Shown here: one piece after another, positions 4,020-37,539 of the stretch | Numbering within the stretch: position 1 is the stretch's first letter | Layout: each line of letters begins with the position of its first letter | NCBI GenBank assembly: GCA_964572175.1 | Contig: CAZNEH010000002.1 | Location: forward strand, 1,406-65,405 | DNA length: 64,000 nucleotides | Source of the DNA: an uncultured Gammaproteobacteria bacterium | GTDB lineage: Bacteria > Patescibacteriota > Patescibacteriia > UBA9570 > CAZNEH01 | Reading direction: 5' to 3' | The notes under the pieces: generated by a model | What the model was told of the DNA's origin: nothing | Databases searched by the model: none | Seen by the model: the letters and a program-made list of their open reading frames with translations, nothing else | Position numbers and translations under genes: made by a program

Positions 4020-4943
4020 ATGGACAAGTTTCTTCACTTCGCCTTCGGCCGATACTCCCGCATCCGTCGAGGCATCTTCTTCTGCATCATGTTCATCCTC
4101 TTCCTCTTCACCATCTCCTACCCTTTCCTCCTGGCTGCCGCGTACTTCCTCATCCTCCTGCTCATCGACTTCAAGATCTGCCACCACTACATGTCCAAGA
4201 TGCCGTCCGATGGTCAGTGGAGTCTGAGGCGGACTGGTGCGCAGATGATCTTCGCCGAAGAAGGTCTCTCCTTCTATCGTGACGCATTCCTGCGCTATCA
4301 AAAGACAGAGCAGCATCGCATCCGTGAAGAAGGGGAGCAGCGCCAGCGTGAGGCCCGGGCTCTTCGTCTCCAGCGCCAGCAGAAGCACGAGCGTCGCATC
4401 CTCGATCTCATCGTCTTAGCCCAGGAAGTGGTCTCCAAGAAGGTCATGGTTCTTCTCCCTCCGGAGATGCAGTGGCTGTGTTCTATCGACGAGCTCACCA
4501 GCTTCCTGCAGGCTGGAGACAACGCTCGCCTGACCAGCTTCCAGACCGCTGCTCAGCGAGCTATCGAACTTTCTATTTGGCTTCAACGGGCTAGGATCGT
4601 CAAGGTCGAGGTCAAGTTCATCAAACTGGTCCGCAAGAATCACGTCCAGGAAGCTAGGGCACTGGTAGTAGAAGCTGAGAGCTACGCCGTTGCCTTGGAG
4701 CAAGCCAAGGAACTGGGTATCCGGCACACCCCAAACATCCCCATCGGCGACCTTAGAGCCTTGATCCAACACTTCGAGAAGATCAAGGGCCGCAATCGGC
4801 AGATCCTGGTCTGGCAGCAACAGATCGATCAAGGCGATCCCAGGCAGCGCAAACTTCTGACCGCGGTCCAAGCCGCAGTCAAGGGCACTGACCGTCAGTG
4901 GCGCAAGGCCGTCTACGACTTGGAGCAAGCGCTCGAAGCGTGA
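4020..4943 (+). CDS. hypothetical membrane-anchored coiled-coil protein; GC-rich island B
   Basis: Two N-terminal TM helices, then a long Arg/Glu/Gln-rich helical region. About 55% GC. GGAG SD 6 nt upstream. No terminator separates it from the upstream rSAM gene. Confidence 0.55.
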   Translation: MDKFLHFAFGRYSRIRRGIFFCIMFILFLFTISYPFLLAAAYFLILLLIDFKICHHYMSKMPSDGQWSLRRTGAQMIFAEEGLSFYRDAFLRYQKTEQHRIREEGEQRQREARALRLQRQQKHERRILDLIVLAQEVVSKKVMVLLPPEMQWLCSIDELTSFLQAGDNARLTSFQTAAQRAIELSIWLQRARIVKVEVKFIKLVRKNHVQEARALVVEAESYAVALEQAKELGIRHTPNIPIGDLRALIQHFEKIKGRNRQILVWQQQIDQGDPRQRKLLTAVQAAVKGTDRQWRKAVYDLEQALEA

Positions 4944-5306: not shown

Positions 5307-7628
5307 ATGGAAAGAAGATTTAGTCGACAATTAGAAGATAAAAAGAAAAAAGCTAAGGACAGATTATTATATGCTGGGTTAATTTCTTTGTTTGTTCATG
5401 GAGCCGCTCCAGTAGCCATGGAAAGTGATAAAATAATGGATAGAGTTCGCATAGAGCTACGTACAGACGACGTAGCTGTTTTAGTTAAGGATATTAACGC
5501 TCAATTAGAACAAGGCCAAGGCATTGAAGACATGGATGGTTTTTTATTACAATCTGAATATTTAGAACAAGGTTTTTCTCAAGAAGAATTAGAATTAGCC
5601 ACTAGAGAATTAAATAGAATTATTACTCAGGCCCAAGAATTAAAAGATCAAGGAAAAAGTAAACAAGAAATTGCTGATTATTTATTATCTGAACAAGGAG
5701 AGTATAATAAACATCAAAATTCTTTAATAGAATTATTAATCAAGTCTAAAGCTTCCCCCGAAGAAATAGATTCTGAGGACACTGGTCTAGAAAGAGATTA
5801 TCGATCTGGAGATTGCCAAGCTCGGTGGAAGCTATTAACTGCTGCTTGGTCAGAAATCTTTCCTGAAGATACTGAACAGATTAAAACCCAAGTTTTTAAT
5901 GGAGCGGACAACGATGGCGATGGTCGGCCAGATAATCCTGGTCATGTTCGAGTAGCCATTACCCTAGACGATGGCCAAGAGCTAGTTGTTGAAGGAAGAA
6001 ATAGTTTTATTGAACCATCAAGTGAATTATCTTTAGACACTTCTGAAATGTTAGCTACTGGCTATTTAGCCCAACATGGTCTTTACGAACATGGTCAAGG
6101 AAACATGCAAGGAGTATCAACAAAAAAATTACACGATTCTTTATTTACCTTTCCATCATCTCCAGTCACTTATTCGGCTTGGGAAAATCCAGACGACCAG
6201 CCAAGTCCTTTTTATTCTAATCCTGATCGTAATGAATATGTAGTTGAGTATATTCCTACTAATACTTTAACTTTAGATAATATTAAAGAAAAGAAGTTGT
6301 ATCATGGAGATGTAGCAAAATTTACAGACATAGACACAGAGGTTCTTAAGGCCTTGGTCAATAATGACTCAATGGATCCTGACACAAGACAAGCTATAAT
6401 TTATAGATTTAATAGCCTTCCTGGGTTTGAGTCTGTTAATTCCTTAAGATCAGAAGAGGTGGCTAATTTATTAGTTCAAATAGATAGTTTAAACAACGTA
6501 TCTTTAACTGAAGTCGGGTCTGAATCAATTCTTAAAATAATAACAGATAAAGCATTTTATTTACGCTTTGGGTATGAGATTAGTCCCTCAGAAGCAATTA
6601 TTATTAATCAAGGAAACAGCTACCATGTAAATTTATCTGGCCCCCAAAATCCACAGGCCATCAAAGAATTAGACAAAAAAGACCTTTCTTTATTAGGTGT
6701 TATTTCTGATAGTGTATATAGCGTACCATCCCAAGAATGGCCAGAATTTACTGAAGAAATGGCCCAGGCTTTTTTAGATAAACCAAGAGAGCATGTTAGT
6801 ATCAGAGGTTATAAAATAGATTCGTCAGTTATTGATATTTTAGTTCAAGCTGATATAAAAAGTTTATCAATTTATGAATACTACGCCTCTGACAACACTG
6901 TTATTGAAAAATTGCACCAAGGTAAATTCAATCATCTAACTATTAATGCTCCCATTGATGATTTTCAAGCAAGTCTTTTTGTTAATAGCGCTATCCCATC
7001 ATTTCGCTTTCAAGAAATAACAAGAGGAGGATATGACTTACTAGTTGAAGCCGGGAAAAAAGTTGAAGTTAAAAAAATTACAGAAGAAAAAGAAAGTGGC
7101 TGGGGAGAGCAAAATGACCAAAAATATTTTACTGGCATCGAAGAATATTTATCTAAGGGCCAAGGGTATGTCCTAAGCATTAGCTCTGATCAGAATAGCC
7201 CCAATATGCCGAATCTTGTTAGCTCTGGACAACAAGAAATAGAAAATACAATTAAGAATTTTCCAATTTATCTGGTTAATATATCAGATGTCACTCTAAC
7301 TCCTGAAAGAATGAGAACAATTCTTCAAGACCCAAAAACAGACACATTAACCCTAATTAAGACAAAAGTTAAAAAGGAAGCTTGGAAAGAAATAGCTCAG
7401 AGCAATATTGTTGTACTAGTCTTAGAGAATGTTTATAACATTGATTATTCTCAATTAGCCAAAAGTAATATAGAGAAGCTCCATTTACATCATTGTGGCA
7501 TAACTTTTGAAGCCGCCAAAAAATTAATAGGTAGTCAAATTAAAGAAGTTCATATTAATATAAATAGTCCTGAGGCTGGGGGGCTTAAAGAAATTTTAGA
7601 AGCCGAAGGAATAAAGGTGGTAATGTAA
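5307..7628 (+). CDS. hypothetical protein (773 aa)
   Basis: Long AT-rich ORF. DNDGDGRPDNPGH looks like a Ca-binding segment. No confident family assignment. Confidence 0.6.
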   Translation: MERRFSRQLEDKKKKAKDRLLYAGLISLFVHGAAPVAMESDKIMDRVRIELRTDDVAVLVKDINAQLEQGQGIEDMDGFLLQSEYLEQGFSQEELELATRELNRIITQAQELKDQGKSKQEIADYLLSEQGEYNKHQNSLIELLIKSKASPEEIDSEDTGLERDYRSGDCQARWKLLTAAWSEIFPEDTEQIKTQVFNGADNDGDGRPDNPGHVRVAITLDDGQELVVEGRNSFIEPSSELSLDTSEMLATGYLAQHGLYEHGQGNMQGVSTKKLHDSLFTFPSSPVTYSAWENPDDQPSPFYSNPDRNEYVVEYIPTNTLTLDNIKEKKLYHGDVAKFTDIDTEVLKALVNNDSMDPDTRQAIIYRFNSLPGFESVNSLRSEEVANLLVQIDSLNNVSLTEVGSESILKIITDKAFYLRFGYEISPSEAIIINQGNSYHVNLSGPQNPQAIKELDKKDLSLLGVISDSVYSVPSQEWPEFTEEMAQAFLDKPREHVSIRGYKIDSSVIDILVQADIKSLSIYEYYASDNTVIEKLHQGKFNHLTINAPIDDFQASLFVNSAIPSFRFQEITRGGYDLLVEAGKKVEVKKITEEKESGWGEQNDQKYFTGIEEYLSKGQGYVLSISSDQNSPNMPNLVSSGQQEIENTIKNFPIYLVNISDVTLTPERMRTILQDPKTDTLTLIKTKVKKEAWKEIAQSNIVVLVLENVYNIDYSQLAKSNIEKLHLHHCGITFEAAKKLIGSQIKEVHININSPEAGGLKEILEAEGIKVVM

Positions 7629-7704: not shown

Positions 7705-9600
7705 ATGAAATTTAAGGTAGGGACCATATTTATAGCCATTATTGCGGCTTTTTTTATTTTTCAAAATCCTGTTTTAGCCACAGAAGTGGGCCAACCTATA
7801 TATAAAGAAGGAGAAATCCTAGTAAAATACAAAGAACCAGTCCTTGGAAACAGTCTGCAAACCATTCAAATAAGCCCTGAAAACGACTTAAACGCTGAAA
7901 TAGAGGGCCTAAAAAGAGATGATAACATCGAATATGCCGAGCCTGTTTTAATGCGGAAAATGACTAAAACTCCGGATGATCCTTATTATTCTTATCAATG
8001 GCACCATACTCAAACTAATGACGCTGACATAAATTCCCCTAAGGCTTGGGAAAAAACCACTGGTAAGACTGGAACAGTAATTGCCGTCATTGATTCTGGC
8101 GTAGACCTAGATCACCCCGATTTAAGTGCTAATATTTGGACAAATTCTGGAGAAACCCCTAATAATGGGATAGATGATGATGCTAATGGCTATGTTGACG
8201 ATTATTATGGATGGGACTTTGTAGATGATGATAATGATCCTAACCCAGACCCAGATGGAATCGACAATGATGGTGACGGTTATGCTGATTATGGTGTTAC
8301 TCACGGTACTCATGTCGCTGGTTTAGCCGCTGGTAAAGGAAATAACTCTACTGGCATTACCGGAGTTTGTTGGAAATGTAAAATCATGACCATTCAAGTT
8401 TTATCAGACGAAGGCTGGGGAGATTCTGCCGGCATTGCCGAGGGAATTAACTATGCCGTGGCCAATGGCGCTGACGTTATTAATATGAGCCTAGGAAGCT
8501 ATGGATATTCAACTGCTGAATATAATGCCGTGACCAATGCTATTGATCAAGGAGTAGTCGTTGTTGCCGCAGTCGGAAACGACACTATAGACTTAGACTG
8601 GTATCCTAATTATCCTTCTTGTTATACTGGCGTGCTCGGAGTTTCTTCAACTGATAGCTCTGACTACGCTTCATATTTTTCTAATTATGGTTCTTGTGCT
8701 GATGTAGCTGCTCCTGGTAGCTACGATTATTCTACTTTATTTTATAATTCTACTTACGGCTTTTATTATTACTACGGTTATATGAGTGGCACTTCCATGG
8801 CTTCTCCGGTTACCGCTGGCTTAGCTGGTTTAATGAAATCTTACGACTCTACTGCTAGTGTTAAAAAAATTCGCAACACAATTATAGATACTGCTGATTC
8901 TTTATCAACTCTTTCTACAGAATATGGCTCTGGCCGTTTAAATGCTAACAAGGCTTTAAACGAACTTAAAGATGAAGAGCGCCCAACCAAGCCTAAGACT
9001 ATTAATGCTTATAAAAAGCCTAATAAAAAGAAAAAGATTGCTAAAAATACTCGCACCACTGAAAAAAGCCCTTATTTTAAATGGTCTAAAGGTACTGACA
9101 ATAAGTCCGTAGCTGGTTATTATGTTTATTGGGGAACAAATAAAAAAGCTGGGCCTAAGGCCAAGGGAGATTATCAAACCGGTAAGACTTTAAAGAAATA
9201 TAAAATCCGTGGCAACGAAAAAGCTTATTATTTAAGAATAAAAACTAAAGACAGCTCTGGAAATATTTCCAAAGGAACAGCTCAATTCAAATATTTAGTC
9301 GATAACAAAGCTAAAAAACCAAAGTCAGTAAATGTTACTGATAAATCTAGCGGAGTTAAAGTAACTTGGAAGTGCGGAGAAAGCCATGTTAAGAGATTTA
9401 ATATTTTTAGACGAGTAGTTAAAGATGGCGGCAAAACCGGAGACTGGAAAAAAGTTAATACTACAGCCGTGACAGTTAAAAATTTCTTAGACACTTCTGC
9501 TGTTCAATGGAAAAAATATCAATATCGTATCCAAGTTAAGGATACTTTAAATAATACGGCTTATTCTAAAGCTAGTGATAATATTAAACATCGATTATAA
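7705..9600 (+). CDS. S8 family subtilisin-like serine protease, secreted, with Lys-rich C-terminal domains
   Basis: Asp (AVIDSGVD), His (HGTHVAG) and Ser (GTSMASP) catalytic motifs. N-terminal signal peptide. Confidence 0.9.
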   Translation: MKFKVGTIFIAIIAAFFIFQNPVLATEVGQPIYKEGEILVKYKEPVLGNSLQTIQISPENDLNAEIEGLKRDDNIEYAEPVLMRKMTKTPDDPYYSYQWHHTQTNDADINSPKAWEKTTGKTGTVIAVIDSGVDLDHPDLSANIWTNSGETPNNGIDDDANGYVDDYYGWDFVDDDNDPNPDPDGIDNDGDGYADYGVTHGTHVAGLAAGKGNNSTGITGVCWKCKIMTIQVLSDEGWGDSAGIAEGINYAVANGADVINMSLGSYGYSTAEYNAVTNAIDQGVVVVAAVGNDTIDLDWYPNYPSCYTGVLGVSSTDSSDYASYFSNYGSCADVAAPGSYDYSTLFYNSTYGFYYYYGYMSGTSMASPVTAGLAGLMKSYDSTASVKKIRNTIIDTADSLSTLSTEYGSGRLNANKALNELKDEERPTKPKTINAYKKPNKKKKIAKNTRTTEKSPYFKWSKGTDNKSVAGYYVYWGTNKKAGPKAKGDYQTGKTLKKYKIRGNEKAYYLRIKTKDSSGNISKGTAQFKYLVDNKAKKPKSVNVTDKSSGVKVTWKCGESHVKRFNIFRRVVKDGGKTGDWKKVNTTAVTVKNFLDTSAVQWKKYQYRIQVKDTLNNTAYSKASDNIKHRL

Positions 9601-10057: not shown

Positions 10058-10072
10058 AAAAAAATTTTTATT

Positions 10073-13000
10073 ATGGCCCAGAAAACAAAAAAGAACGCAT
10101 TTTACTTATCTAGCGCTGTTTTTATTATATTGCTCAGCGTTTTTTTATTTAATTATCCTCCTCAAGAAACAAAAGCATTAACTACTATTAGCTGTGTTAC
10201 TGATACTGCTGTGAGCTCAGCTAGTTATAACACAAGTCATGACCTAGCTTTTAGTGCCGGAGGAGGAAATAATACCTGTGTTTTAACTGGTGATTTTAGT
10301 GTTAATTCTGTTACAGTGAACCCTAATGTTATTTTAACTCATACCGCTGAAAACGCAGATGGAGTTAGTATTACCACGGTTGATTATTTTACTTTAGATG
10401 TTAATGCATCTATCAATGTAGATGAAAAAGGCTGTAACGGTGAGTCTGATGCTGGTGGTTGGGGTCCTAATGCTTCTAATGTTTGCGCTGAATATGATGC
10501 TGGTTGGGGAGATGGCTCTATAAATGGATGGAATGGTACTCAAGGAGCTGGTCATGGTGGAGCCGGAGGACTAGGAACAGACGCTGCTTATGATGATGGT
10601 GGTCTTACCTATGGGTCTCCTACTGCTCCAATTTTATTTGGTTCTTCTGGTGGTCCAGCCTTTGATGACGGTGGAACCTCTGGTGATGGCGGTGGGTTAA
10701 TTATATTAAATATTGGCGGAACTTTTACTCATGACGGGTCTATCTCAGCTAATGCTGGAAACGGTAGTGGAGCTGAGGGTCCAGATTCTAAAGCTTCTGG
10801 TGGTGGATCTGGTGGATCCATTAATATTACCGCTAACTCCATAACTGGTTCTGGAGACTTTGCTGCAGATGGTGGAAATGGTGGAAATGGTACTGATGAT
10901 GACGCCGGTGGTGGAGGTGGGGGCGTATCGCGGTTAAATATGCTGGTGGTGATTATAGTTTTGATTCTACGGATTTTAGCGTAGCTGGCGGAACTATTAC
11001 TGATGGAGCAACCGCTGGAGACAAGGGAACAGTTTATGTAGAAAATACAACCTCTAATGCTGTTAATATTTATCATGGCTTTACCTATGCTTCAGATTAT
11101 AGTGAAGCATCTTGGACTGTAGATTCTTCCGCAACTAACCAATATTGTAACTATGGTGACCCTGATGAAACTGATGAGGCCACTCCTTCAATTACTGTTA
11201 CCGGAGCTCTTACTTTAACCGGGACTTTTGATTGCTCAGATAGCAATGTTACTAGTTTTGATACCGCCGTTGGTACAAGCATGAGCTTAACCGCTCTTAC
11301 TTTTACTTTAGCGGCCGAAGATGTTTGGACTATGAACGATGCTGTTCCTGCTACTGTAACTTCTTCTTCTGCTATTAACTCTAATGTTGAATGGACAAAT
11401 TTAACCAGTCTTAGTATAGATAGCACTTCTAGTATTAATGCTAATGAAAAAGGATGTGCTAGCGAAGGTGCTTCTTATGGTTACTTCCCAGATACTGATC
11501 CTGGAAATTATAATGTTTGTATAAATGCAGAGCCTGCTGGTAATGGCGGTGGACAAGGTAGTGACGGAGGGTGGATTGGCTCCCAAGGGGCTGGTTTTGG
11601 TGGGGCTGGAGGACTAGGTTCTGACGCAGGTTATAGTAATGGTGGCGTGGTCTATGGCTCTAATACTGCGCCTGATTTATTTGGTTCTGCTGGCGGTCCA
11701 GCTTGGGCTGATGATCCTGGTTCTGGTGATGGCGGTGGATTAATTCGCTTAGATGTTGATGGAACTTTTACTCATAATGGTGCCCTTTCTGTAGATGGTG
11801 GATCTGGTGGAGCAGCTACTAATGCTTCTGGTGGTGGATCTGGTGGGTCAATTTATATTACGGCTAGTGAAATATCAAATGGTGCTGGCTCAGACGGTAC
11901 ATTTTCTGCTGATGGTGGCCCTGGTGGAGATGGTAGTGGAGACGATGGTGGTGGTGGAGGCGGAGGACGAATCTCTGTTAGCGCTGTAGACAGTTTTGAC
12001 AATCTAGGCACTTTAACTGCGGCTGGCGTAGCCACTGGCGGAACTGCCACTGGAACTGCGGCTGCTGGTTCTAACGGTACTCTTTATACTCTTTTTTACA
12101 CTGCTCCAGACCAACCAACTCTTAGTCCTTCAGACTCTGCTCGTAACATGGCCCTAACTAGCTCAGCTTATTCTTCAAATGGTGCTTCCCATACTTCTAC
12201 CGATTGGTATGTTTGTACAGATGGCGCTTGCGATGCTAACAGTCTAGTTTGGTATTCAGAAGACGATGCTTCTAACCTAGAATCAATAACTGTAAATACT
12301 ACTAACGGAACTTTTTCAGGAGACTTAGCTGGTAAAACAAAACTTGCTCCAGCAACTAATCATCAAATAAAAGTTCGCCATACTAATGCCGCTGGTGATT
12401 CTACTTGGAGTGTATTTACTGGTCAAAATACCATTGCTAACAATGTTCCTTCCACTCCTACTAACTCTTCGCCAACAGACGCTGCTACAGATCAATCTAA
12501 AACTCCAACAATTTCTGCCTCTTCATACTCAGACTCAGATTCAGATACTCATACTTACAGCACTTGGAATACTTATGAATCTTCAGACTGTTCAGGAAGT
12601 GAAATTTGGTCTTCTGGATCAGTTGCCGCTAATGAATCTACCACTATTAATGAAGCAAGTGGAGCTTTTTCAGACAGTCACTTAGGTGAGGCAGACTTAA
12701 AAGGACATACCCAATATTCTTGGCAAGTAAGATATGACGATGAATACGATGGTCAATCAAGTTATTCAGCTTGTACCACTTTTACTACTTTAAACACTAC
12801 TCCAGTCGCTAGTGCTGGCTCAGACCAAACAGTTATTGAAGGAACTGACGCTACCTTAACGGCTACTTCTACAGATGATGACTGGAATGACACACCAACT
12901 AACACTTGGATAGAGTCTTTAGACTCTTCAGATGGGTGTACTCTTTCTGGAACAACTGCCACTACCTCAAATAAAGAAACTTCTTACACTTGCCAATTCC

Positions 13001-13878
13001 AAGTTACAGCTGACGATGGATCAAGTGGAGAGGATACAGACACCATGACTTTAACTGTCACCGCAGACAATGATGCTCCTGCTCTAGGTTCCATGGAAAC
13101 AAGTGTTACTATCGATGAAGAAGATACTCTTCTTGCCACCTACACTGCCACAGACGCAGACACTGCTTCTCTAAGTTTTACTGCTTCAAGTTTACCAACA
13201 GGCTCAACTTTAACAGATAACTCTAATAATACTGCTACTTTAACTTGGACCCCAGACTCAACTCAATCAGGAACATACACTTTAACTCTTCAAGTCTCAG
13301 ACGGCACAACTGCAGTCACTCAAAATATTACCATCACTGTAAACGACACAGTCCAAGACGAAGAGGAAGAAGAACCAGTAAACACCATCGAAGACATTGG
13401 TCTAGTCTCTGGCACAGAATCAGGCCCAGGTATTGTCACTTTATACGACAACGACAATGAAGAATTATGTTCAGTTAGAGCTTGGAACGAGGGTGGGTCA
13501 GTTCCATTCGCAGTTCGTTTCCTAGACACTACTTACGTGGCAGTTGTAAAAAATAAAGTAGGCACTACTATTCACCTTTATGATCTAAATTGTAATATTA
13601 TTGAGAAAAAGAGATTATCACCTAAACTACATCCTCGTAACATTGTCACTAGAAACTTCTTAGGTAAAACTACTTCTCAAGAAATAGGTTTAACCTCACG
13701 AAGAGGAAGCACAGTATATGGTAAGATCTTCAGATATAATCCAAACAAAGACAAATGGTACTTACTAAGACAAAAAACATTTAGACCAGTTCCAACTGGA
13801 TATAACCTAAAGAAAACCAAAAAAGGAAATATTCTCATCAAGAAAAACAATAAAACTCTCCACAAGTGGGAGATATAA
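10073..13878 (+). CDS. giant Gly-rich cell-surface protein (paralog of 33699-37490), interrupted by a single-nucleotide frameshift in a G5 tract near 10919-10923; pseudogene, phase-variable gene or sequencing error
   Basis: ORF-track pieces 10073-10984 and 11281-13878 are one gene. Frame B is open from 10921, and its translation GRIAVKYAGGDYSF parallels GRAAIYYNDASGFT in the intact paralog. Total length is 3806 nt, which is 3n-1. Confidence 0.7.
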
Positions 13879-13881
13879 TAT
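13296..13881 (+). repeat. large near-identical DNA repeat (copy a) encoding the shared C-terminal module of the giant surface proteins
   Basis: More than 90% identical over about 580 nt to 36907-37493. The last 230 nt are essentially identical. Copy b is 29650-30166. Confidence 0.85.
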
Positions 13882-13892
13882 CAATATAAAAT

Positions 13893-13922
13893 AAGCCCCG
13901 ACTGAAGTCGGGGCCTTTTATT
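13893..13922 (+). terminator. intrinsic terminator after the giant gene
   Basis: GCCCCGACT-GA-AGTCGGGGC stem followed by CTTTTATTAT. Confidence 0.7.
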
Positions 13923-13970: not shown

Positions 13971-14011
13971 CCCCCTCTCCACGAAGGTGGAGAGGGGGCT
14001 AGGGGGTGAGG
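13971..14011 (+). repeat. GC-rich palindromic intergenic element, copy 2
   Basis: CCCCCTCTCCACGAAGGTGGAGAGGGGG + CTAGGGGGTGAGG. Confidence 0.7.
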
Positions 14012-14022
14012 AAAGAAGAAAT

Positions 14023-15249
14023 ATGAAACAAATAGTTAAAAAGTTAATTCCTAAATCAGGATTATCCTTATATCATAAAAGCCTAGCTTATTTAGCTGAT
14101 TCTTGTTATAAGCATCCTTCTCGCCAGTTAAAGGTTATCGGAATTACCGGTACTAAAGGAAAATCTACGGTAGCTAATTTAGTTTGGCATATTCTAACTC
14201 TTTCTAATCACAAGGTTGGCCTTACTTCTACTGCTAATATAAAAATAGGCGACAAAGAAAGAATGAATCCTTATAAGATGACTATGCCTGGACGGTTTGA
14301 AATGCAAAGATTGTTAAAAGAAATGGTCGACGCTGGTTGCGACTATGCAATTATTGAAACCACTTCTCAAGGAATCCTTCAATGGCGTCATGCTTGTATA
14401 GATTATAATGTTGTTGTCTTCACCAATCTTTACCCAGAGCACATAGAGGCTCATGGCGGGTTTGAAAATTATAAAAAAACTAAACTAGAATTATTTAAAA
14501 TAAACCCCAAAGTAAGTGTTATCAATATTGACGATGAGAATCATAAAGAATTTTTAGACCAGCCTGCTGAACAAAAATATACTTTCTCTCAGTCAGAAGT
14601 TAGCGACCTAGAAGTAGATAAAACAGGAATAAATTTTACATATAAAAACATTCGCTTCGAAGTTCCTCTTTTAGGAGAAGTTAATTTATTAAATATTTTA
14701 GCCGCTATTAAGATTGCTGAGTCTCAAGAAATTAAGATTGATCAAATCGCTCGAGCTTTATATACTTTTCCTGGAGTCCCTGGTCGTATGGAACTAATCA
14801 ACGAAGGTCAAGATTTTACCGTTATTGTCGACTATGCCCACGAACCTCGAGGCGTAGAACTTTTATATAAATTTTTAACTAAAATAAAAACTAATAAAAT
14901 AATCACTGTCACTGGATCTTGCGGTGGAGGTAGAGACGAGTGGGTTCGAAAGATTAAAGGGGAGCTAGCTGATAAATATTGTGATTATGTAATAGTAACC
15001 AACGAAGATCCCTATGACGAAGATCCGCAAGTTATTATAGACCAAGTTAGCCAAAGTATTCCCCCAGAAAAATTATTTAAGATTTTAGACCGTAAAGAAG
15101 CCATTAAAAAGGCTTTTGAGCTGGCTGAGTCCGGAGATATCGTCGTTTTAACTGCTAAAGGCTCAGAACAAGCTATTGTTGGTAAAAATATGAAGAAAAT
15201 CCCCTGGGACGAAAGAGAAGTAGCTAGAAAACTGCTTAAAAACAGCTAA
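14023..15249 (+). CDS. Mur ligase family protein (MurT/MurE/FolC-like central and C-terminal domains)
   Basis: GITGTKGKST P-loop of Mur ligases, and a TNLYPEHIEAHGG motif. Start at MKQIVKK, because MERGLGG comes from the repeat. Confidence 0.7.
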   Translation: MKQIVKKLIPKSGLSLYHKSLAYLADSCYKHPSRQLKVIGITGTKGKSTVANLVWHILTLSNHKVGLTSTANIKIGDKERMNPYKMTMPGRFEMQRLLKEMVDAGCDYAIIETTSQGILQWRHACIDYNVVVFTNLYPEHIEAHGGFENYKKTKLELFKINPKVSVINIDDENHKEFLDQPAEQKYTFSQSEVSDLEVDKTGINFTYKNIRFEVPLLGEVNLLNILAAIKIAESQEIKIDQIARALYTFPGVPGRMELINEGQDFTVIVDYAHEPRGVELLYKFLTKIKTNKIITVTGSCGGGRDEWVRKIKGELADKYCDYVIVTNEDPYDEDPQVIIDQVSQSIPPEKLFKILDRKEAIKKAFELAESGDIVVLTAKGSEQAIVGKNMKKIPWDEREVARKLLKNS

Positions 15250-24223: not shown

Positions 24224-27200
24224 GTGAAACAAACAAAAAACAAAAAATTAGCCCATCTTCTTAGCATTATATCTATCGCTGTTATCAGTGTTTTTTTATT
24301 TAGTTCTAGCCCAGTTCAAGCCGCAGTAGTAACTTGGGAGGGAGATGAAAGCGCCTTATGGAGTGTTGGGGGTAATTGGAGTAATGGTAGTGGTGTAGGA
24401 GCCGGAGACATTGCTACTTTTGATGGTACTGGAAATACGGCTTGTACTATTGATGGCACAGCTAGTGTGGCTGGAATTGATATAAACTCAGGTTATACCA
24501 ATACTATTACTCAAGCTGCAGAATTAACGATTGGAAGTTCTCATTTCGACATTGCCTCCGGAACATTTACTGGTGCAACTCAAGATATTACTATAAGTGG
24601 GAACGTGGTTATTGCTGGGGGTATATTTAATAGTACCTCAGGAACAATTAGCTTTTCTGGAGACTGGACTCATACTGCTGGCGGAGAATGGAACGCGTTG
24701 ACAGGAACAGTAAAATTTACTGGTTACAGAGAAACTTTTAATTTTGATTATCCAACCATTGCCACCTCTGGGGTTTTTAATAATTTTACTTACGATAGTA
24801 CAAGTGACTCCGGTTCTTATGTGAGTTTATCAGGAGACACTTTATATATTAATGGTAATGCTCTTTTTTACGATGGCAGATGTTATAATGGTGCAGGCAT
24901 TCAAGTTCAAGGAGATGTTACTATAGGACCCTGGGATGGCTATGATACTACGGACGCTTCTTTAACTTTTTCTGGAACAGGAACTCAAACTTTTGATTTA
25001 ACTGGGTACACAGGTTCTTGGGATGCTCATACAATTATTGGAACTGGTTCAAATTCTCCAACAGTAAACTTAGCTTCAGATTTTATAATAAATAAAAGTA
25101 CCCAAGATTTAACCATTACTAATGGAAGTTTAAATATCGGAGCCTATGAATTAGAAGTGGTAGACGATACAAATATAGCCGGAGGAACCTTAAATGGTGA
25201 CACCGGGACCTTGGATTTGTATGATGTGATCATTACAGATGGAACCCTTAATGGAACGACCGGAGATTTTAATTTTTCCGGAGATTGGACTCATACTGCC
25301 GGCGGAATCTGGAATCACAATAATGGGTTAGTGACATTTGATGGTTATAGAGAGACTTTTAATTCCAATTATCCTACTATTTCTTCTTCTGGAGTTTTTT
25401 ATAATTTGACTATTAATAACTCAGGCGAAACTGGTGGTTATTTTTCTATCTCCACAGGAGATAGTATTTATGTTAATAATGACCTAAATTTTACTAATGG
25501 TAGATTTAATGTTGGTACATCAGTGGTTGTTCAGGGAGACGTTACAGTTGCCTCTACTTGGGATGGTTTTAACAATACAGATGCCGAATTAATTTTTGCT
25601 GGCTCTGATCCTCAAACTTTTGATCTTACTGGCGGTACCGGAACAATAAATTCAAACATTACTATTGGTACAGGATCTTCAACTCCAACTGTTAATTTAG
25701 TCTCAGACTTAATCATGAATTATGGCTCACAAGACTTAACCGTTCTTGCTGGCACTCTAAATGCATCAACTTACGAAATTGAAGTCATCGATGACTTAAC
25801 AGTCTCTGGTGGAGTTCTTAATGCTGCCTCTGCTAATTTAGACTTAGAAGATTTAATTATTACAGATGGAACTTTTAATGCACCCACTGGAACCATGTAT
25901 ATTTCTGGTAACTGGACCCACACTGCTGGTGGAGTGTTTAATAATAATAGTGGGACCGTTATGTGGGACGGTGCTGGTGCTCACACTTGGAATTTTGACA
26001 AAGCTTCATATGCTACTTCTGGTGTATTTAATAATGTTACATTTGATTGTAATGGCACGGGAACCGTATGTGGCGGAGGTTCTAATTATGTGAGCGTGTC
26101 AGCAGGAGACACTATATATCTAGATGGGGATTTAGAAATTCCTGATGGAAGAATACTTGGCTCAACATCAACTATTGAGGTTTCAGGAGATGTTACTATT
26201 GGAGCGAATTGTTATAGTTATGACACTAATGATGCTGATTTAGTTTTTGCAGGTTCATCACCACAAACATTTGATCTGACTGGTGCTGAGGCTTTATTTA
26301 ATTCTGATATATCAATAGGTACTGCAACTTCGACTCCTACAGTTAATTTGGTCTCTAATTTAACCATGGATCTTTGGGATCAAGATTTAGATATTATCGA
26401 AGGAACTTTAAATTTGAACGGATACGATATTGATTTAGATAATCAATCTGCTAATCATATTACCGTTGAAGATGGCGGAGTCTTTGCTTGGAAGGGAACA
26501 GAGACTCTAGCTCTTAATTCTGGAGACCCAATTTTAAATTCAGGAAGTACTGTCCAATATAACCCAACCACTGGAACAGTTAGTACTCAAGATTGGGGCT
26601 ATCATCATTTAGCAGTAGCCTCTACCGGAGGAGCAATTGTTCAACTTGGAACCACTGAAGCACTAGCCGGAGATTTAAGTATTGACTCTGGAACATTTTC
26701 TCTTAATGGCCAGTCCTTATCAGTGACTGGTACATTTAGTAACGATGGAGCCTTACGTTTAATTGGAACAGAAAGTCCATCCTTAACCAATGATACCGAC
26801 AGTGGAGCAATAGAATATATTGGAGACAATGATTCTGGAATAGATAGCTACACCTTAGGTTTTAGCTCTTATTATGGTCTAATTATTAATAGTAGCGATG
26901 GAGCTGATGATACTTTTCAACTAGCCAGTGACACAGATATTGATGGAAGCCTAACTAACACTGCTGGCACCTTGGATGTGACCACCAATAATTATCAAAT
27001 CAATGTCGCTGGTAATTGGGCTAATGGCGGAGGAACATTTAATCCTCGTTCCGGAGCTGTTGTTTTAGACGGTACCAGCCAAGCTATTTCTGGAACTAAT
27101 ACTTTTTATAAATTAACTAAACAAGTTGGCTCTGCAGATACTCTTACTTTACCAGCTAGTACCACTACTACTGTTTCCAATCTTTTAACTTTACAAGGAA

Positions 27201-30163
27201 ATTCTACAGATCAACGCTTATCTTTAGCTAGTTCTACTCCAGACACTCAATTTAATATTGATCCCCAAGGAGTTAGAATATTACACTATTTAAATGTTCA
27301 AGACAGTAACAACGCCAATGCCACTGAGGCAGATTGTAACAAAGGATGTTTAAGCTCAGATAATAATACCAACTGGAGCTTTTACGATATTTCTACTTAC
27401 ACCACTTCTTCTCAGGCTTGGCATTTTACAAGCTCTAGTGATTATACTTATAACTCTTCTTATATAGACATTGCCCTGGATGCTGGGGCTACTTATTCTC
27501 GTTTAAAGGATTTAGGCGGAGCAACTTATCAAGCTGCTAGCCTACCAGGGCTTAGTCATCGCAAACCAATTACTATTACTAATTCCGGATCGTCTTTAAC
27601 TGATCATCAAATTGAACTTTCAATAACTTACGATTTAGACATGCAGGCTGATTTTGATGATCTAAGATTTACCACTTCAGACGGACAAACAGAAATAGAC
27701 TATTGGATTCAAGATTATACCGCTTCTACATCAGCTACTATCTGGGTTGAAGTTCCAACTATCGCCGCCACCCCAACTGATACTACTATTTACATGCATT
27801 ATGGAAACGCAAGTACTTCCACAACTTCAAATATTGATAATACTTTTCTATTTGGAGACGATTTCGATGATGCCTCAGTAGATACAAATAAATGGACCAC
27901 TACCGGAATCTTAGAAGAAACCGGCGGGTCATTATTAATGAATGCTACCGAAGGTGTTTGGGCTACTAATTATATTGTTGAAGACGACTCTATTACTACT
28001 TTTCAAGCTTATATTGATGTTACTGGGACAAAGTCTAATCTAGGATATGTGGAAGAATCTCATCAATTCGAGGATGATTTAGATTCTGGTGAAAAAGGAT
28101 TTGACTTTGGATTCTGGACTTCCACAAGTTTATATTTTGAAAGAGGGGGAAGTACCTATGAAGAGAGCTCAGTAACTTATGGGACTGGCTGGAATGAATA
28201 TACTGCCACTTACCAAGAAGGAACTTCAATTAAATTTGAATACCCTAGTAGTTCTTTTACTGAAGACACCGCTACCTCTGTGGTCGCAGTTTCAGATGCT
28301 CCTCATTTACAAATTTATTCTTTTGATCGAGTTGATTTTAGAGCAGACTATGTATTTGTTAGAAAATATACCTCTAATACTGTGGGCGCATCTTTGGGTT
28401 CAGAAGAAGAAGTTAGTTACGATAATGTACAAATTATTCCTGTTTCAGTTCCAGCCTACGCCAATATAATTTCTTTTACAGAAACTCTAGGAGCCGCTAA
28501 TGCTGGTAGCGTGGCCTATCAACTATCTAAGAATGGAACTAATTGGTACTATCATAATGATTCCTCTTGGACTGCGGTGTCTGTTGATTCTGTGCACAAT
28601 AATACAGCTACAGAAGTAGATAATTTAATCACAAACTTCACCACAGATGTAGGTACAGGAGATTTATATTTTAAAGCTTTCTTAATCTCAAGTGGATCAC
28701 AAAAAGTTGAACTAGATGCCATAACGTTAACTTATAACGCTGTTCCTCAGGAGCCAACTAGTCTATCTCCTTCAACCACTGACATAGCTTTATCAGGTAC
28801 AGCTTCGGCTACTATTAGCGACATGATGGGATCTCACCAGTCCACTTCTTGGAAAATGCAAACTGGTTCAGATTGTTCTGTAGACTCAGGTGTAGCCTTT
28901 TCCTCCTTGGTAGATTCTACTAACAAAACATCTATTACTTATTCAGGTTTAGACTTTAGCACTTCTTATTACTTATGTGTTGCCAATCATAACGAAGGCG
29001 GCCAAGGAGATTGGCAGTCACAGTCATTTACTACTGTAGCTAATCAAGCTCCAACTGCTAGCGCTGGTACAGATATTACTATCTCAGAAGATGATGAATC
29101 TACGGCCCTAGATGGAACTAGCTCTTCAGACCCAGAAAGCCAGGCCTTAACTTATACTTGGTTAGAAACAGTTGACGCCTCAGATGGATGTTCTTTATCT
29201 AGTCCTAGTAGCTCTACTCCAACTGTTACTGTTTTAAATAAAGACACCAGTTTTAATTGTACCTTTTCTTTAGAAGTAGAAGACACTCAAGGTGCTACTT
29301 CTACGGATACAGTTAATCTTTATATCACTGCCGACAACGACGCTCCAGCTTTTGGATCAATTGCCTCTACTCAAAATATAGATGAAGAATCAGTTTTACT
29401 TATTTCCTTTACCTCTTCAGATCCAGATACTTCCTCTTTGACTCTTTCAGCCTCTAATCTTCCAACAGGTTCCACTTTTACAGACAACCTAAATAACACA
29501 GGAACATTTAATTGGTCTCCAGATGGAACGCAGTCTGGAATTTATACTGTTACCTTCCAATTAACTGATGGTGAAAATACTACCACTCAAACCGTAACCA
29601 TCACAGTTAATGATACTGTTCAAGAAGAGGGGGAGGGTGACGAAGAAGAGGAGGAAGAACCAGTTAACACTATCGAAGACATTGGTCTAGTCTCAGGTAC
29701 AGACTCAGGCCCAGGCATTGTCACTCTTTATGGTAATGACAACGAAGAACTATGTTCAGTCCAAGCTTGGAATGAAGGTGGAGCAGTTCCATTTAGAGTC
29801 CGCTTCTTAGACACTAACTATATTGCTGTAGTAAAAAATAAAACAGGTACCACTATCCATCTTTACGATCTAAATTGTAATATTATTGAGAAAAAAAGAT
29901 TATCCCCTAAACTACATCCTCGTAACATTGTCACTAGAAACTTCTTAGGTAAAACTACTTCTCAAGAAATAGGTTTAACCTCACGAAGAGGAAGCACAGT
30001 ATATGGTAAGATCTTCAGATATAATCCAAACAAAGACAAGTGGTACTTACTAAGACAAAAAACATTTAGACCAGTTCCAACTGGATACAACCTAAAGAAA
30101 ACTAAAAAGGGAAATATTCTTCTTAAGAAAAACAACAAAACTCTCCACAAGTGGGAAATCTAG
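24224..30163 (+). CDS. giant secreted surface protein (1979 aa): beta-helix-like tandem repeats, DUF2341/LamG-like region, cadherin-like (ADNDAP) domains, shared C-terminal module
   Basis: Signal peptide. Three tandem repeats of about 230 aa ([10 protein letters not shown]...GYRETFN). C-terminal 170 aa nearly identical to the other two giant proteins. Confidence 0.8.
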
Positions 30164-33698: not shown

Positions 33699-36600
33699 AT
33701 GGCTCAAAAAACAAAAAAGAAGGCATTTTACTTATCTAGCGCGGTTATTATTGCAATAATCAGCATTTTTTTATTTAATTACCCCCCTCAATCAGTAAAT
33801 GCAGCCGATGAATCAGTTTCTTGTAATTCTACCACCCTAGATCAAACCGCTTTAGATGCTTTAGCTGGAGATGCTGTTACTTTTACTGACGGTGGAGACG
33901 GTATTTGTATTTTTACTGGAACTTTAGGCGCTGCTTCTGTTACTGTTAACGCTGATGTTACTTTAACTCACAATGCTGAGGATGAAGATGGATTAAGTAT
34001 TACCACTGCAGATTATTTTCTCTTAAATGGAAACATAGACGTTGAGGGAAAAGGTTGTTCTGGCGGAGAAAATGGAAGCACTGATGGTCATGGTCCAGAC
34101 ACATCTACCGGGGTTTGTGCTCAAACTACTAGTGGTTATGGTAAGAGTGGTGATAGTGGAGGGGCACATGCTGGCTCTGGTGGCGAAGGACATTATGGTG
34201 GGGCAGTTCAATTAACAACTTATGGAGACTCCAACAATTCCTCTTTACTCGGATCTGGAGGTGGAGCTACCAGTAATCCAAATACTTATGGTGGAAATGG
34301 CGGCGGATTAATTGCTTTAACAATAGGAGGAACTTTAACTGTAAACGGTAGTATAAATGCTGATGGGCAAGATGGTTATGGAACAGCGAATCGTGGTGGC
34401 GGAGGATCTGGGGGTTCAATTAAAGTGACAACTACTACCTTAGCTGGGTCTGGGGCAATTTCTGTTGATGGAGGTAATGGTAATACAAATTACTCTGGTG
34501 GCGGTGGTGCAGGCAGGGCTGCAATTTATTATAATGATGCTAGCGGCTTTACTTTAACTAATATTACTGCTGCTAAAGGTTTAAAATCTTCTGGAACTAC
34601 TGGTAATGCCGAAGATGGAACCGTTGGTTCAATTTTTATCTTAGATCAAGATTCTGACATCTTAACTACTACTACTGGCTTAGAGCTGCAAGACGGGGAT
34701 GATTACACTAAATCCGAAATTACTTTTTTAGATGGTGCTCAAATCTGGTGTGATAGCTTTGCCACTCTTAATATCGGAGCCACTGGTACCTTAGCAATGG
34801 ATGATAATACCTGGACTTGTGACAGTGTTGATACTATAAATATGTCTGCTGGCACTTGGACCACATCTGGAACCAGTACCATGAGCTTTAATAAAGCAGG
34901 TAGTCAGGTAGATTGGGATATTTCTAATAATCTTACTTTAAATAACCTAACTTATAATGGAGGATATGCCGGAATCACTAGTGCTAGTGGCGGGCTTTTA
35001 ACTTTAGATAACCCCATTGATATTAATTTAGTAAATACAGATATTATTTCTAGTGTAGACTTGGACGCTACTAATCTAACTCTAGATGCTAGCTCATCTG
35101 TTAGCGCCAAAGGAACAGGTTGTGCCGGTGGAATAACTAGCAGTACCAATGGTTATGGACCCAATACCTCCACAGGAATTTGTACTCAAGGAGAAAGTGG
35201 TTATGGTAAAGGAAATGATGGAGGAGGGGCGCATGCTGGTGCTGGCGGTCGAGGAAATTATGGTGACGCTACCCAGTTAACAACCTATGGCAGTGCTGAT
35301 AATCCATCTTTATTTGGTTCAGGTGGAGGATCTAATGCTAATCCAAATAATTATGGCGGATATGGAGGAGGAAAAGTTTTTATTGATGTTACTGATACTT
35401 TGTCTGTAGCTGGAGATATAAATGCTGACGGACAAGATGGTTATGGTTCTGGTAGTCGTAGTGGCGGAGGCTCTGGAGGGGCTTTAAAAATTACTACTGG
35501 AACTTTATCTGGAGCTGGAACAATTTCTGTTGATGGTGGCAATGGTAATACAGATTACTCTGGTGGAGCCGGTGGCGGCCGAGCTTATGTTGGCTATGCT
35601 GTTAATGATTCATTTAATCTTTCTAATATTACTTCCACCAAAGGTTTAAAATCTTCTGGAACTCCTGGTAGTGCAGTTGATGGAGGCGATGGCTCTGTTT
35701 CTACCCTTGCTTACACCGCTCCAACACAACCAACTCTTAGTCCTTCAGACACATCTCGTAACATGGCCCTAACCAGCTCAGCTTATTCTTCAAATGGTGC
35801 TTCTCATACTTCTACTGATTGGTATGTTTGTACTGATGCTGCTTGTGATGCTAGTAGCCTAGTCTGGTACTCTGAAGATGATGCTTCTAACTTAGAAGCA
35901 GTAACTGTAAATACAACTAATGGAACTTTTGCCGGCACCTTGGCTGGTGAAACAAAGCTTGCTCCAGCAACTAGTCATCAAATAAAAGTTCGCCATACCA
36001 ACGCTGCTGGTGATTCTACTTGGAGTAGCTTTACCGGTCAAAGCACTCAAGCTAATAATGTTCCAAGTGCTCCTACTAATGTAGCTCCTGCAGATGCTAC
36101 CACTGACCAATCTAAAACTCCAACCCTAACTTCTTCTATATACTCAGATTCAGACTCAGATGATCATGGAGATTCTACTTGGGAAATATATGAATCTTCA
36201 GATTGTACTGGAGATAAAGCCTGGAGATCATTAGATGACTCTTCTAATTTAGAATCAATTGATACTTCTGCCGCTGGAACCTTTCTTGATGACTATGCTA
36301 CTCCAGGAGAATTAAAAGGGCACACTGAATATTCTTGGAAAGCTAGGCACGACGATGAATATTCTGGTCAATCTTCAGACTCATCTTGTACAAAATTTAC
36401 TACCTTAAACACCACTCCAACTGCCAATGCAGGCGCAGATCAAACCGCTACTGAAGGAGACGACGTAACCCTAAGCGGGTCATCTACAGATTTAGACTGG
36501 AACGACACAGTTACTGAAACTTGGATTGAATCACTTGATTCTTCAGATGCTTGTACTCTTTCTGGAACAACGGCCACTACTTCAGATAAAGAAACATCTT

Positions 36601-37490
36601 ACACTTGCCAATTCCAAGTTACAGCTGACGACGGTCAAGGTACTACAGATACCGACACTATGACTTTAACTGTCACTGCCGATAACGACGCTCCAACTAT
36701 GGGCACTCTGGCAGACGTTGTTGTAGATGAAGAACAAGCTCTTCTTATTGCCATTTCTTCTGCCGACACAGACTCATCTTCTTTAACTCTTTCAGCATCA
36801 ACCTTACCAACTGGCGCAGTCTTTACCGATAACGAAGACACCACTGGAAACATGCAATGGACTCCAACCTCAGATCAATCAGGAGCCTATGCTGTTACCT
36901 TCAGTGTTTCAGACGGCACAACTGCAGTCACTCAAAATATTACCATCACTGTAAACGACACAGTCCAAGACGAAGAGGAAGAAGAACCAGTTAACACTAT
37001 TGAAGACATTGGCTTAGTTTCTGGAACAGAATCAGGTCCTGGTATTGTCACTCTTTACGACAATGACAACGTAGAGCTATGCTCAGTTAGAGCTTGGAAC
37101 GAAGGTGGGTCAGTTCCATTCGCAGTTCGCTTCTTAGACACTACTTATGTGGCAGTTGTAAAAAATAAAGTAGGCACCACTATTCACCTTTACGATCTAA
37201 ATTGTAATATTATCGAGAAAAAAAGATTATCCCCCAAACTACATCCTCGTAACATTGTCACTAGAAACTTCTTAGGTAAAACTACTTCTCAAGAAATAGG
37301 TTTAACCTCACGAAGAGGAAGCACAGTATATGGTAAGATCTTCAGATATAATCCAAACAAAGACAAATGGTACTTACTAAGACAAAAAACATTTAGACCA
37401 GTTCCAACTGGATATAACCTAAAGAAAACCAAAAAAGGAAATATTCTCATCAAGAAAAACAATAAAACTCTCCACAAGTGGGAGATATAG
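33699..37490 (+). CDS. giant Gly-rich cell-surface protein (1263 aa), intact paralog of 10073-13878
   Basis: MAQKTKKK signal anchor, Gly-rich repeats, cadherin-like domains, shared C-terminal module. The ORF-track start at 33681 is TTG inside the leader palindrome. Confidence 0.8.
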   Translation: MAQKTKKKAFYLSSAVIIAIISIFLFNYPPQSVNAADESVSCNSTTLDQTALDALAGDAVTFTDGGDGICIFTGTLGAASVTVNADVTLTHNAEDEDGLSITTADYFLLNGNIDVEGKGCSGGENGSTDGHGPDTSTGVCAQTTSGYGKSGDSGGAHAGSGGEGHYGGAVQLTTYGDSNNSSLLGSGGGATSNPNTYGGNGGGLIALTIGGTLTVNGSINADGQDGYGTANRGGGGSGGSIKVTTTTLAGSGAISVDGGNGNTNYSGGGGAGRAAIYYNDASGFTLTNITAAKGLKSSGTTGNAEDGTVGSIFILDQDSDILTTTTGLELQDGDDYTKSEITFLDGAQIWCDSFATLNIGATGTLAMDDNTWTCDSVDTINMSAGTWTTSGTSTMSFNKAGSQVDWDISNNLTLNNLTYNGGYAGITSASGGLLTLDNPIDINLVNTDIISSVDLDATNLTLDASSSVSAKGTGCAGGITSSTNGYGPNTSTGICTQGESGYGKGNDGGGAHAGAGGRGNYGDATQLTTYGSADNPSLFGSGGGSNANPNNYGGYGGGKVFIDVTDTLSVAGDINADGQDGYGSGSRSGGGSGGALKITTGTLSGAGTISVDGGNGNTDYSGGAGGGRAYVGYAVNDSFNLSNITSTKGLKSSGTPGSAVDGGDGSVSTLAYTAPTQPTLSPSDTSRNMALTSSAYSSNGASHTSTDWYVCTDAACDASSLVWYSEDDASNLEAVTVNTTNGTFAGTLAGETKLAPATSHQIKVRHTNAAGDSTWSSFTGQSTQANNVPSAPTNVAPADATTDQSKTPTLTSSIYSDSDSDDHGDSTWEIYESSDCTGDKAWRSLDDSSNLESIDTSAAGTFLDDYATPGELKGHTEYSWKARHDDEYSGQSSDSSCTKFTTLNTTPTANAGADQTATEGDDVTLSGSSTDLDWNDTVTETWIESLDSSDACTLSGTTATTSDKETSYTCQFQVTADDGQGTTDTDTMTLTVTADNDAPTMGTLADVVVDEEQALLIAISSADTDSSSLTLSASTLPTGAVFTDNEDTTGNMQWTPTSDQSGAYAVTFSVSDGTTAVTQNITITVNDTVQDEEEEEPVNTIEDIGLVSGTESGPGIVTLYDNDNVELCSVRAWNEGGSVPFAVRFLDTTYVAVVKNKVGTTIHLYDLNCNIIEKKRLSPKLHPRNIVTRNFLGKTTSQEIGLTSRRGSTVYGKIFRYNPNKDKWYLLRQKTFRPVPTGYNLKKTKKGNILIKKNNKTLHKWEI

Positions 37491-37500: not shown

Positions 37501-37539
37501 CCCCCTCTCCAGACGTGGAGAGGGGGTTTGGGGGTGAGG
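37501..37539 (+). repeat. GC-rich palindromic intergenic element, copy 5
   Basis: CCCCCTCTCCAGACGTGGAGAGGGGG + TTTGGGGGTGAGG. Followed by TGCTATAAT at 37548-37556. Confidence 0.7.

Follow-up and report, generated by a model that had tools for sequence, protein, structure and literature searches.

A lineage-specific C-terminal domain of putative Patescibacteria surface proteins with a possible role in envelope docking

The T9SS C-terminal domain of Bacteroidota (Por_Secre_tail, PF18962 / TIGR04183) is a small beta-sandwich found at the extreme C-terminus of numerous surface proteins and enzymes that are exported by Sec and are otherwise unrelated; a single genome contains many copies. The non-covalent wall-binding modules of Gram-positive bacteria, including GW of InlB and Ami, WxL, SLH, CWB2 and the basic regions of Lactobacillus S-layer proteins, place a basic module at the C-terminus of acidic secreted proteins that start with a signal peptide and contain an Ig-like stalk, a charge logic suited to anionic envelope polymers. 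Dockerins of cellulosomal enzymes are small Ca-binding helical modules that form a conserved C-terminal part on diverse cargo and dock to one common receptor, and paralogous copies in one species stay similar to each other. The Patescibacteria form a very large group, mostly uncultured, whose members live attached to other microbes; the cultivated ones are episymbionts. To our knowledge, they have neither an outer membrane nor a T9SS, and little has been learned of how their surface proteins are assembled and displayed. We analysed a stretch of 64,000 nucleotides (the window; G+C 38.6%) in which three large genes had been noted for their similar ends.

The original prediction was that these three genes terminate in a near-identical module. 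We searched the window with the end of g3 by tblastn and blastn, aligned the DNA and translated the genes. The results showed exactly three copies of a 166-aa module, one at the end of each of the large plus-strand genes g1, g2 and g3, as predicted. The copies and the adjacent hairpins were located as follows.

13378..13875, plus strand: module copy 1, end of g1, 166 aa (blastn/tblastn, alignment, HMMER hit P0002)
29663..30160, plus strand: module copy 2, end of g2, 166 aa (blastn/tblastn, alignment, HMMER hit P0003)
36990..37487, plus strand: module copy 3, end of g3, 166 aa (query of all searches and the sequence modelled)
13895..13914, plus strand: terminator-like hairpin downstream of g1, with no relation to the 3' flanks of the other two genes
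37501..37526, no strand assigned: GC-rich hairpin after g3, between g3 and ftsK (scored on the minus strand by the scan)

The module runs from VNTIEDIG to HKWEI, and all three translations finish KTLHKWEI. The g1 and g3 modules differ at 1 residue; g2 and g3 share 94% identity over the module. The DNA alignment showed that homology stops at the stop codon, with identity climbing toward it and collapsing directly after it. Each gene has a 3' flank of its own: the hairpins after g1 and g3 differ, and the g2 stop codon abuts a convergent IMPDH gene. By blastn, the DNA similarity among the copies reached ~765-785 nt upstream of the stop, rather than the 510-590 nt first proposed, because the upstream Ig-like domains are also common to the genes.

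We then examined the genes upstream of the module. Pfam searches identified Big_9, Cadherin_5, He_PIG and PKD domains before it, together with DUF2341 in g2. The features of the three genes were as follows.

24224..30163, plus strand: g2, 1979 aa; signal peptide, repeated N-terminal units, DUF2341, K319L-like PKD, Big_9, linker, module (ORF list, translation, Pfam)
24224..24322, plus strand: predicted Sec signal peptide of g2, 33 aa, ending SSSPVQA, with putative cleavage (translation, hydrophobicity)
29042..29611, plus strand: Ig-like stalk of g2, PKD and Big_9/Cadherin_5 (Pfam)
33699..37490, plus strand: g3, 1263 aa from the ATG, architecture as g1; the ORF as listed begins at TTG 33681 (ORF list, translation, Pfam)
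33699..33803, plus strand: predicted Sec signal peptide of g3, 35 aa, ending PPQSVNA, with putative cleavage (translation, hydrophobicity)
36408..36956, plus strand: Ig-like stalk of g3, PKD_4, then Big_9/He_PIG/Cadherin_5 (Pfam)
10073..10984, plus strand: 5' part of g1, signal peptide and Gly-rich repeat region, to the post-frameshift stop (ORF list, translation)
10073..10177, plus strand: predicted Sec signal peptide of g1, 35 aa, ending PPQETKA, with putative cleavage by the -3/-1 rule (translation; paralog hydrophobic window score 2.5)
10915..10925, plus strand: G-run GGTGGGGGC, site of the g1 frame change (translation)
10903..13878, plus strand: 3' part of g1 in the shifted frame, second Gly-rich unit, fn3-like region, PKD, Big_9, module and stop (translation, Pfam, stop-to-stop ORF with module match)
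12793..13344, plus strand: Ig-like stalk of g1, PKD_4, then Big_9/Cadherin_5/He_PIG (Pfam)
13357..13377, plus strand: acidic linker of g1, DEEEEEP (translation)

The genes had been described as otherwise different in architecture. This is correct for the N-terminal region of g2, but the paralogy of g1 and g3 extends from end to end, and g2 shares its last ~550 aa (fn3-like region, PKD, Big_9 and module) with g3. Both g1 and g3 also contain an internal duplication of ~1.05 kb of a Gly-rich (GGxGG...) N-terminal unit, with 70-76% nucleotide identity, and this unit has a weak NCBIfam match to the AgmC N-terminal domain.

10526-10774 and 11569-11817: Gly-rich unit duplication in g1
34047-34520 and 35112-35585: Gly-rich unit duplication in g3

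Gene g1 (10073-13878) had been read as one intact gene. Translation and tblastn showed instead that its ORF is broken by a frame shift in the G-run at about 10915-10925. The g3 protein matches frame 1 of g1 at 10067-10771; this frame reads ...DDDAGGGGGG, and the next frame goes on RIAVKYAGGDYSFDS, a continuation that parallels the internal repeat GDDGGGGGGGRISVSAVDSFDN / GDDGGGGGGGRISVSAV. As a result of the frame change, public gene calls hold just an 865-aa 3' fragment (P0002). The frame change may be a MAG assembly error, the mark of a pseudogene or a slippage-prone phase-variable site.

To place the module in a wider context, we searched 1.84 billion cluster representatives exhaustively with HMMER, which gave 63 matches at E<=1e-3 and 51 at E<=1e-10. 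Three of the 63 were the window's own proteins. One further match (P0061), a Big_6/DUF285 protein in which nine short stretches were matched, was spurious and was rejected as a family member. The remaining 59 cluster representatives contain the whole module at 24-52% identity. In every one of the 62 true matches, just 0-14 residues separate the end of the module from the C-terminus, and full-length members range from ~400 to 3100 aa. All named members come from Patescibacteria, one of them from Ca. Kerfeldbacteria; the RpoB of the window is likewise nearest Patescibacteria and Kerfeldbacteria sequences, with 78% identity to the best named matches. These results agree with the proposal that the module is lineage-specific, and they show that it is more than a recent local duplication. 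The cargo of the family includes Big_9/cadherin/PKD stalks, DUF2341, beta-helix/NosD, FG-GAP and M14 peptidase domains.

Several copies per genome were observed: three within 27 kb here, tandem pairs in L001 and L027, and at least 8 in MAG GCA_041660885.1 (P0007 and its upstream neighbour, P0012, P0014, P0024, L013, L016 and L018). In this MAG, near-identical module copies lie at contig ends (L016 1-365 and L018 3897-4199), which suggests that the repeated 3' ends break short-read assemblies, and MAG copy numbers are therefore probably underestimates. The contigs of the closest relatives by RpoB (L022 and L023) end short of any module gene.

The window module had no match in Pfam (2025) or NCBIfam (2026) at E<=0.1, comparison of 53 family members with Pfam gave no consistent family, and a PDB sequence profile search with the family alignment returned nothing significant. 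No description of the domain was found in the searchable literature. A word-index protein search matched neither the module nor the alignment, which reflects a limit of the index, as family proteins are present in the collection; a scan of genome and metagenome contigs with the module protein also gave no match. A degenerate DNA pattern for KKRLSPKLH identified one MAG in the genome contigs (4 loci) and one true metagenome match (L032), and none in viral contigs; all other pattern matches were due to chance. Judged from sequence, the module is a real, conserved, undescribed, lineage-specific C-terminal domain family.

Next, we compared the three copies over their last 172 codons to assess selection and gene conversion, either of which had been offered as the cause of the near-identity. 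The 27 nucleotide differences between g1 and g3 were all inside the first 88 codons, where 25 codon differences were synonymous and 1 was non-synonymous, a pattern that indicates purifying selection on the module protein. Over the final 252 nt, g1 and g3 were identical. Their nucleotide identity rose from 45-60% in the 5' half through 60-84% in the stalk to 85-100% in the module, and dropped to 47% beyond the stop. The low identity of the 5' halves shows that the duplication is old, and identity of the last 252 nt in spite of this indicates that the 3' half of the g1 and g3 modules was recently homogenised by gene conversion. Thus, both proposed causes apply, in different halves of the module. 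Gene g2 has identical runs of 131-134 nt in common with each of the other two genes, in the core. It differs from g1 and g3 at 50-54 positions, and synonymous differences return in its last ~27 codons. Runs as long as those observed occurred in 0 of 20,000 permutations that scattered an equal number of differences over third codon positions (P<5e-5). A second genome, MAG GCA_041660885.1, also showed concerted evolution, with ~94% nucleotide identity up to the stop among L013, L016 and L018.

13624..13875, plus strand: apparently homogenised tract, 252 nt, g1 identical to g3 37236-37487 (sliding-window profile)
29909..30040, plus strand: core of g2 identical to g1 and g3, with synonymous differences on both sides (coordinates approximate)

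Identity that extends even to synonymous sites could also stem from an element that acts at the DNA or RNA level, or from a recent duplication, with no functional protein domain involved. We consider this extremely improbable, and the data contradict it. The protein family is kept to ~25% identity in other genomes, the upstream half shows the 25:1 ratio, and the g1/g3 duplication is old. An RNA element in the identical core was rejected, as it folded no better than shuffles (z = 0.00) and had no Rfam match. The only overlapping ORF in the core was a 62-aa antisense ORF with a TTG start, which is not credible. A DGR target was also rejected: the differences are scattered and almost all synonymous, and the window ORFs scanned contained no RT domain.

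To characterise the domain itself, we aligned 53 family sequences and modelled the g3 copy with AlphaFold2. The alignment showed conserved glycines, K58, E102 and W164, a motif of 11 residues followed by ..A.GNLD....TEEIV..T.RG., and a terminal W[KR]P[F]. Within the subfamily of the window, each of the 11 aligned sequences contained both C31 and C72, and these columns were without Cys in the rest of the alignment as displayed. This co-occurrence suggests a probable C31-C72 disulfide and hence an extracytoplasmic location. From a single sequence the model was poor (pLDDT 47), while with the family alignment a confident single-domain all-beta model was obtained (pLDDT 88, pTM 0.80), containing 14 beta-strands between residues 9 and 164. 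The region had been divided into a linker, a beta-rich domain and a separate basic tail. This anatomy was inaccurate, as the beta-rich part and the tail form one folded domain in the model, with strands to residue 164 and a tail pLDDT of 87-93.

Foldseek searches of PDB and BFVD with this model returned beta-propellers only, including WD40, Kelch and NHL proteins, the designed four-blade Cake4 (6tjd) and the multi-chain fragments 6r60, 6r5z and 8pks. These small or fragmentary propellers are the sole structural likeness of the module, and they differ from it in several respects. The matches were weak (E>=1.5e-3 in PDB and 7e-4 in BFVD, 8-16% identity), with query-normalised TM-scores of 0.50-0.59 over ~160 columns, and none of the propeller repeats WD40, Kelch, NHL, FG-GAP, PD40 or hemopexin gave a consistent Pfam match among the 53 members at E<=1. 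Internal blade repeats were rejected, since hhalign of module segments showed no significant periodicity (best P = 0.007). The predicted fold therefore weakly resembles a small or partial beta-propeller of 14 strands.

Fourteen strands correspond to 3.5 four-stranded blades, and such an incomplete propeller could pair across chains to close, bundling the paralogs as homo- or hetero-oligomers. Among the top PDB matches are propeller fragments built from more than one chain (6r60, 6r5z and 8pks), and homogenised 3' halves would keep the interfaces of paralogs compatible. However, the monomer model is already compact and confident, blade repeats are statistically undetectable, and oligomerisation on its own leaves the extreme positive charge described below unexplained. 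We regard this reading as very unlikely.

We subsequently examined charge and export signals. The median pI of the module is ~10.1, and the window copies have a net charge of +15. The remainder of each protein has a pI of ~4.05, at or near the acidic floor of the calculation, and an acidic linker (EEEEE) precedes the module. Almost all full-length members begin with an N-terminal hydrophobic segment, and in the products of g1, g2 and g3 it belongs to a classical n-h-c signal peptide that ends in TKA, VQA and VNA, respectively. From these sequences we infer that the signal peptides are cleaved and that the module proteins are extracellular. About 20 of the 48 full-length members (~40%) contain a conserved membrane-anchor-like region, TM - F.SP..SF - GY..SY..H..W.R - TM, in their first ~100 aa; in detail, a long hydrophobic segment is followed by F.(S)P..SF, ~10 aa, (K)GY..SY..H..W.R+ and a second hydrophobic segment. 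These members are P0005, P0008, P0017, P0019, P0021, P0022, P0024, P0026, P0028, P0029, P0032, P0034, P0035, P0038, P0040, P0041, P0045, P0050, P0051 and P0060. The region resembles another module peculiar to the lineage, either an extended signal or a membrane anchor, found alongside the C-terminal domain. In its place, g1, g2 and g3 encode plain signal peptides.

Such an anchor would place the C-terminus at the distal end of the protein, where the module could act as a propeller-like lectin or adhesin that binds anionic surface polymers of the episymbiont's host cell. Small propellers are often lectins, all structural matches of the module are beta-propellers, and RpoB identifies the organism as a Patescibacteria bacterium. 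Several observations argue against host binding. The module is the most conserved part of these proteins and the N-terminal parts are variable, while host-recognition tips usually show the reverse. In addition, the plain signal peptides of the three window proteins would leave them to escape from the cell without another anchor, and the cargo includes enzymes such as the M14 peptidase. Taken together, a host-binding role appears unlikely.

We also searched the gene neighbourhoods for a partner of the module. The 64-kb window contained no sortase or secretion partner and no T9SS machinery genes (PorU/PorV etc.), and the contexts of eight relatives showed no recurrent neighbour. An LPXTG/sortase signal was rejected, as the last 40 residues have neither an LPXTG motif nor a hydrophobic stretch and the window has no sortase. 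The other genes of the window are housekeeping genes (rpoBC, ftsK, guaA/guaB, recA, groEL, uvrA, uvrD and a Mur ligase), along with ORFs that had no Pfam match at E<=0.001: 5307-7628 (773 aa), 56215-58650 (811 aa), 52311-53222 on the minus strand (303 aa) and 4020-4943 (307 aa). Two genes upstream of g1, with MgtC in between, lies an S8 subtilase (7705-9600) with a signal peptide and a very lysine-rich, basic C-terminal region of ~200 aa that has no Pfam match and no module. It was rejected as a processing partner because it does not recur next to relatives. In MAG GCA_041660885.1, P0012 is flanked by two YkuD (L,D-transpeptidase) genes (L028 7657-9072 and 14488-15903), one of them with FG-GAP repeats; this flanking was not seen in other contexts.

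In three related genomes, module genes have peptidoglycan-precursor genes beside them. The gene after g1 encodes a Mur ligase, another Mur ligase is present in L026, and glutamate racemase occurs with iPGM in L026 and L027. This adjacency is probably conserved synteny, and possibly hints at a connection with the wall.

Window 13987-15249: peptidoglycan-precursor gene, the Mur ligase after g1
L026 18293-19573 and 20492-21220: peptidoglycan-precursor genes
L027 6937-7668: peptidoglycan-precursor gene

These contexts bear on whether the module is a sorting or secretion signal like the T9SS C-terminal domain, recognised by dedicated machinery that passes on or attaches the cargo and possibly cleaves the domain. 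The strict C-terminal position in 62 of 62 proteins and the many cargo types per genome would fit such a signal, and a very conserved 11-residue loop, modelled less confidently than the rest (pLDDT 74-76), could be a recognition or processing site. However, neither Por_Secre_tail nor any sorting-signal model matched convincingly (PF18962 hit 2 of 53 members, at E>=0.011, and did not hit the window module), and no conserved partner gene was present in the window or around the eight relatives. Moreover, 165 folded residues are large for a signal, and the source organism is presumably monoderm, so that Sec export should suffice. A sorting signal is thus quite unlikely.

The C-terminal position, diverse cargo, many copies, signal peptide, Ig-like stalk, basic-on-acidic charge, and conservation with homogenisation together form the signature of a docking, retention or sorting domain. 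Our preferred reading, which is tentative and somewhat short of probable, is that the module is lineage-specific and serves to dock or retain surface proteins exported by Sec, through non-covalent binding to an envelope receptor that they have in common and that is probably anionic. Both this binding and what is bound are what we infer from the signature. The proteins would be exported by Sec via their N-terminal signal peptides. The basic C-terminal domain would then hold them non-covalently on the common receptor, for which a wall polymer, a membrane lipid or a common surface/S-layer protein are candidates, and the strongly acidic functional and stalk regions would point outward. As all paralogs would have to fit one receptor, the domain would be under strong purifying selection, with its 3' half additionally homogenised by gene conversion in this genome. 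Several points count against retention. The contexts of eight relatives showed no conserved neighbouring gene. A propeller-like fold would be more usual in a lectin or a protein-interaction domain than in the wall-binding modules described so far. The main caveat concerns the ~20 of 48 members with the conserved N-terminal anchor, in which C-terminal retention would be redundant and the C-terminus may be distal and host-facing.

Because the family is undescribed and has a clear signature, all carrier proteins in a genome can be found by it; the carriers span adhesin-like proteins and enzymes, with at least 8 in one MAG. As a compact, foldable reagent of 165 aa, the module could be used in pull-downs and localisation to find the attachment target of surface proteins. 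This is a rare family, with 59 representatives out of the 1.8 billion clusters searched and a distribution in Kerfeldbacteria-like lineages; its impact is therefore lineage-specific rather than general.

Compared with known systems, the module is best classed as a new domain family that fills a known kind of role. Like the T9SS C-terminal domain, it is a folded all-beta domain at the extreme C-terminus of many unrelated Sec-exported surface proteins and enzymes, in many copies per genome. It differs in being about twice as long and, by its model, weakly propeller-like, in having no sequence match with that domain and in showing no partner machinery. It has the overall plan and charge logic of the Gram-positive wall-binding modules in common, as a basic module that ends an acidic secreted protein with a signal peptide and an Ig-like stalk; its pI of ~10 would be consistent with binding to peptidoglycan, teichoic acid or a secondary wall polymer. 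The predicted fold differs, and the GW, WxL, SLH, CWB2, CW_binding and LysM Pfam models did not match the module. Like dockerins, it is a conserved C-terminal part on diverse cargo, but its predicted fold is unrelated and no cohesin-like partner was identified. We also considered the module as the recognition handle of a surface-display system specific to a Patescibacteria lineage, in which an envelope receptor or machinery would assemble many different adhesins and enzymes and gene conversion would keep the paralogs matched to the receptor. We hold this broader reading to be doubtful; if true, the system would be a functional parallel, evolutionarily unrelated, of T9SS C-terminal domains or dockerins.
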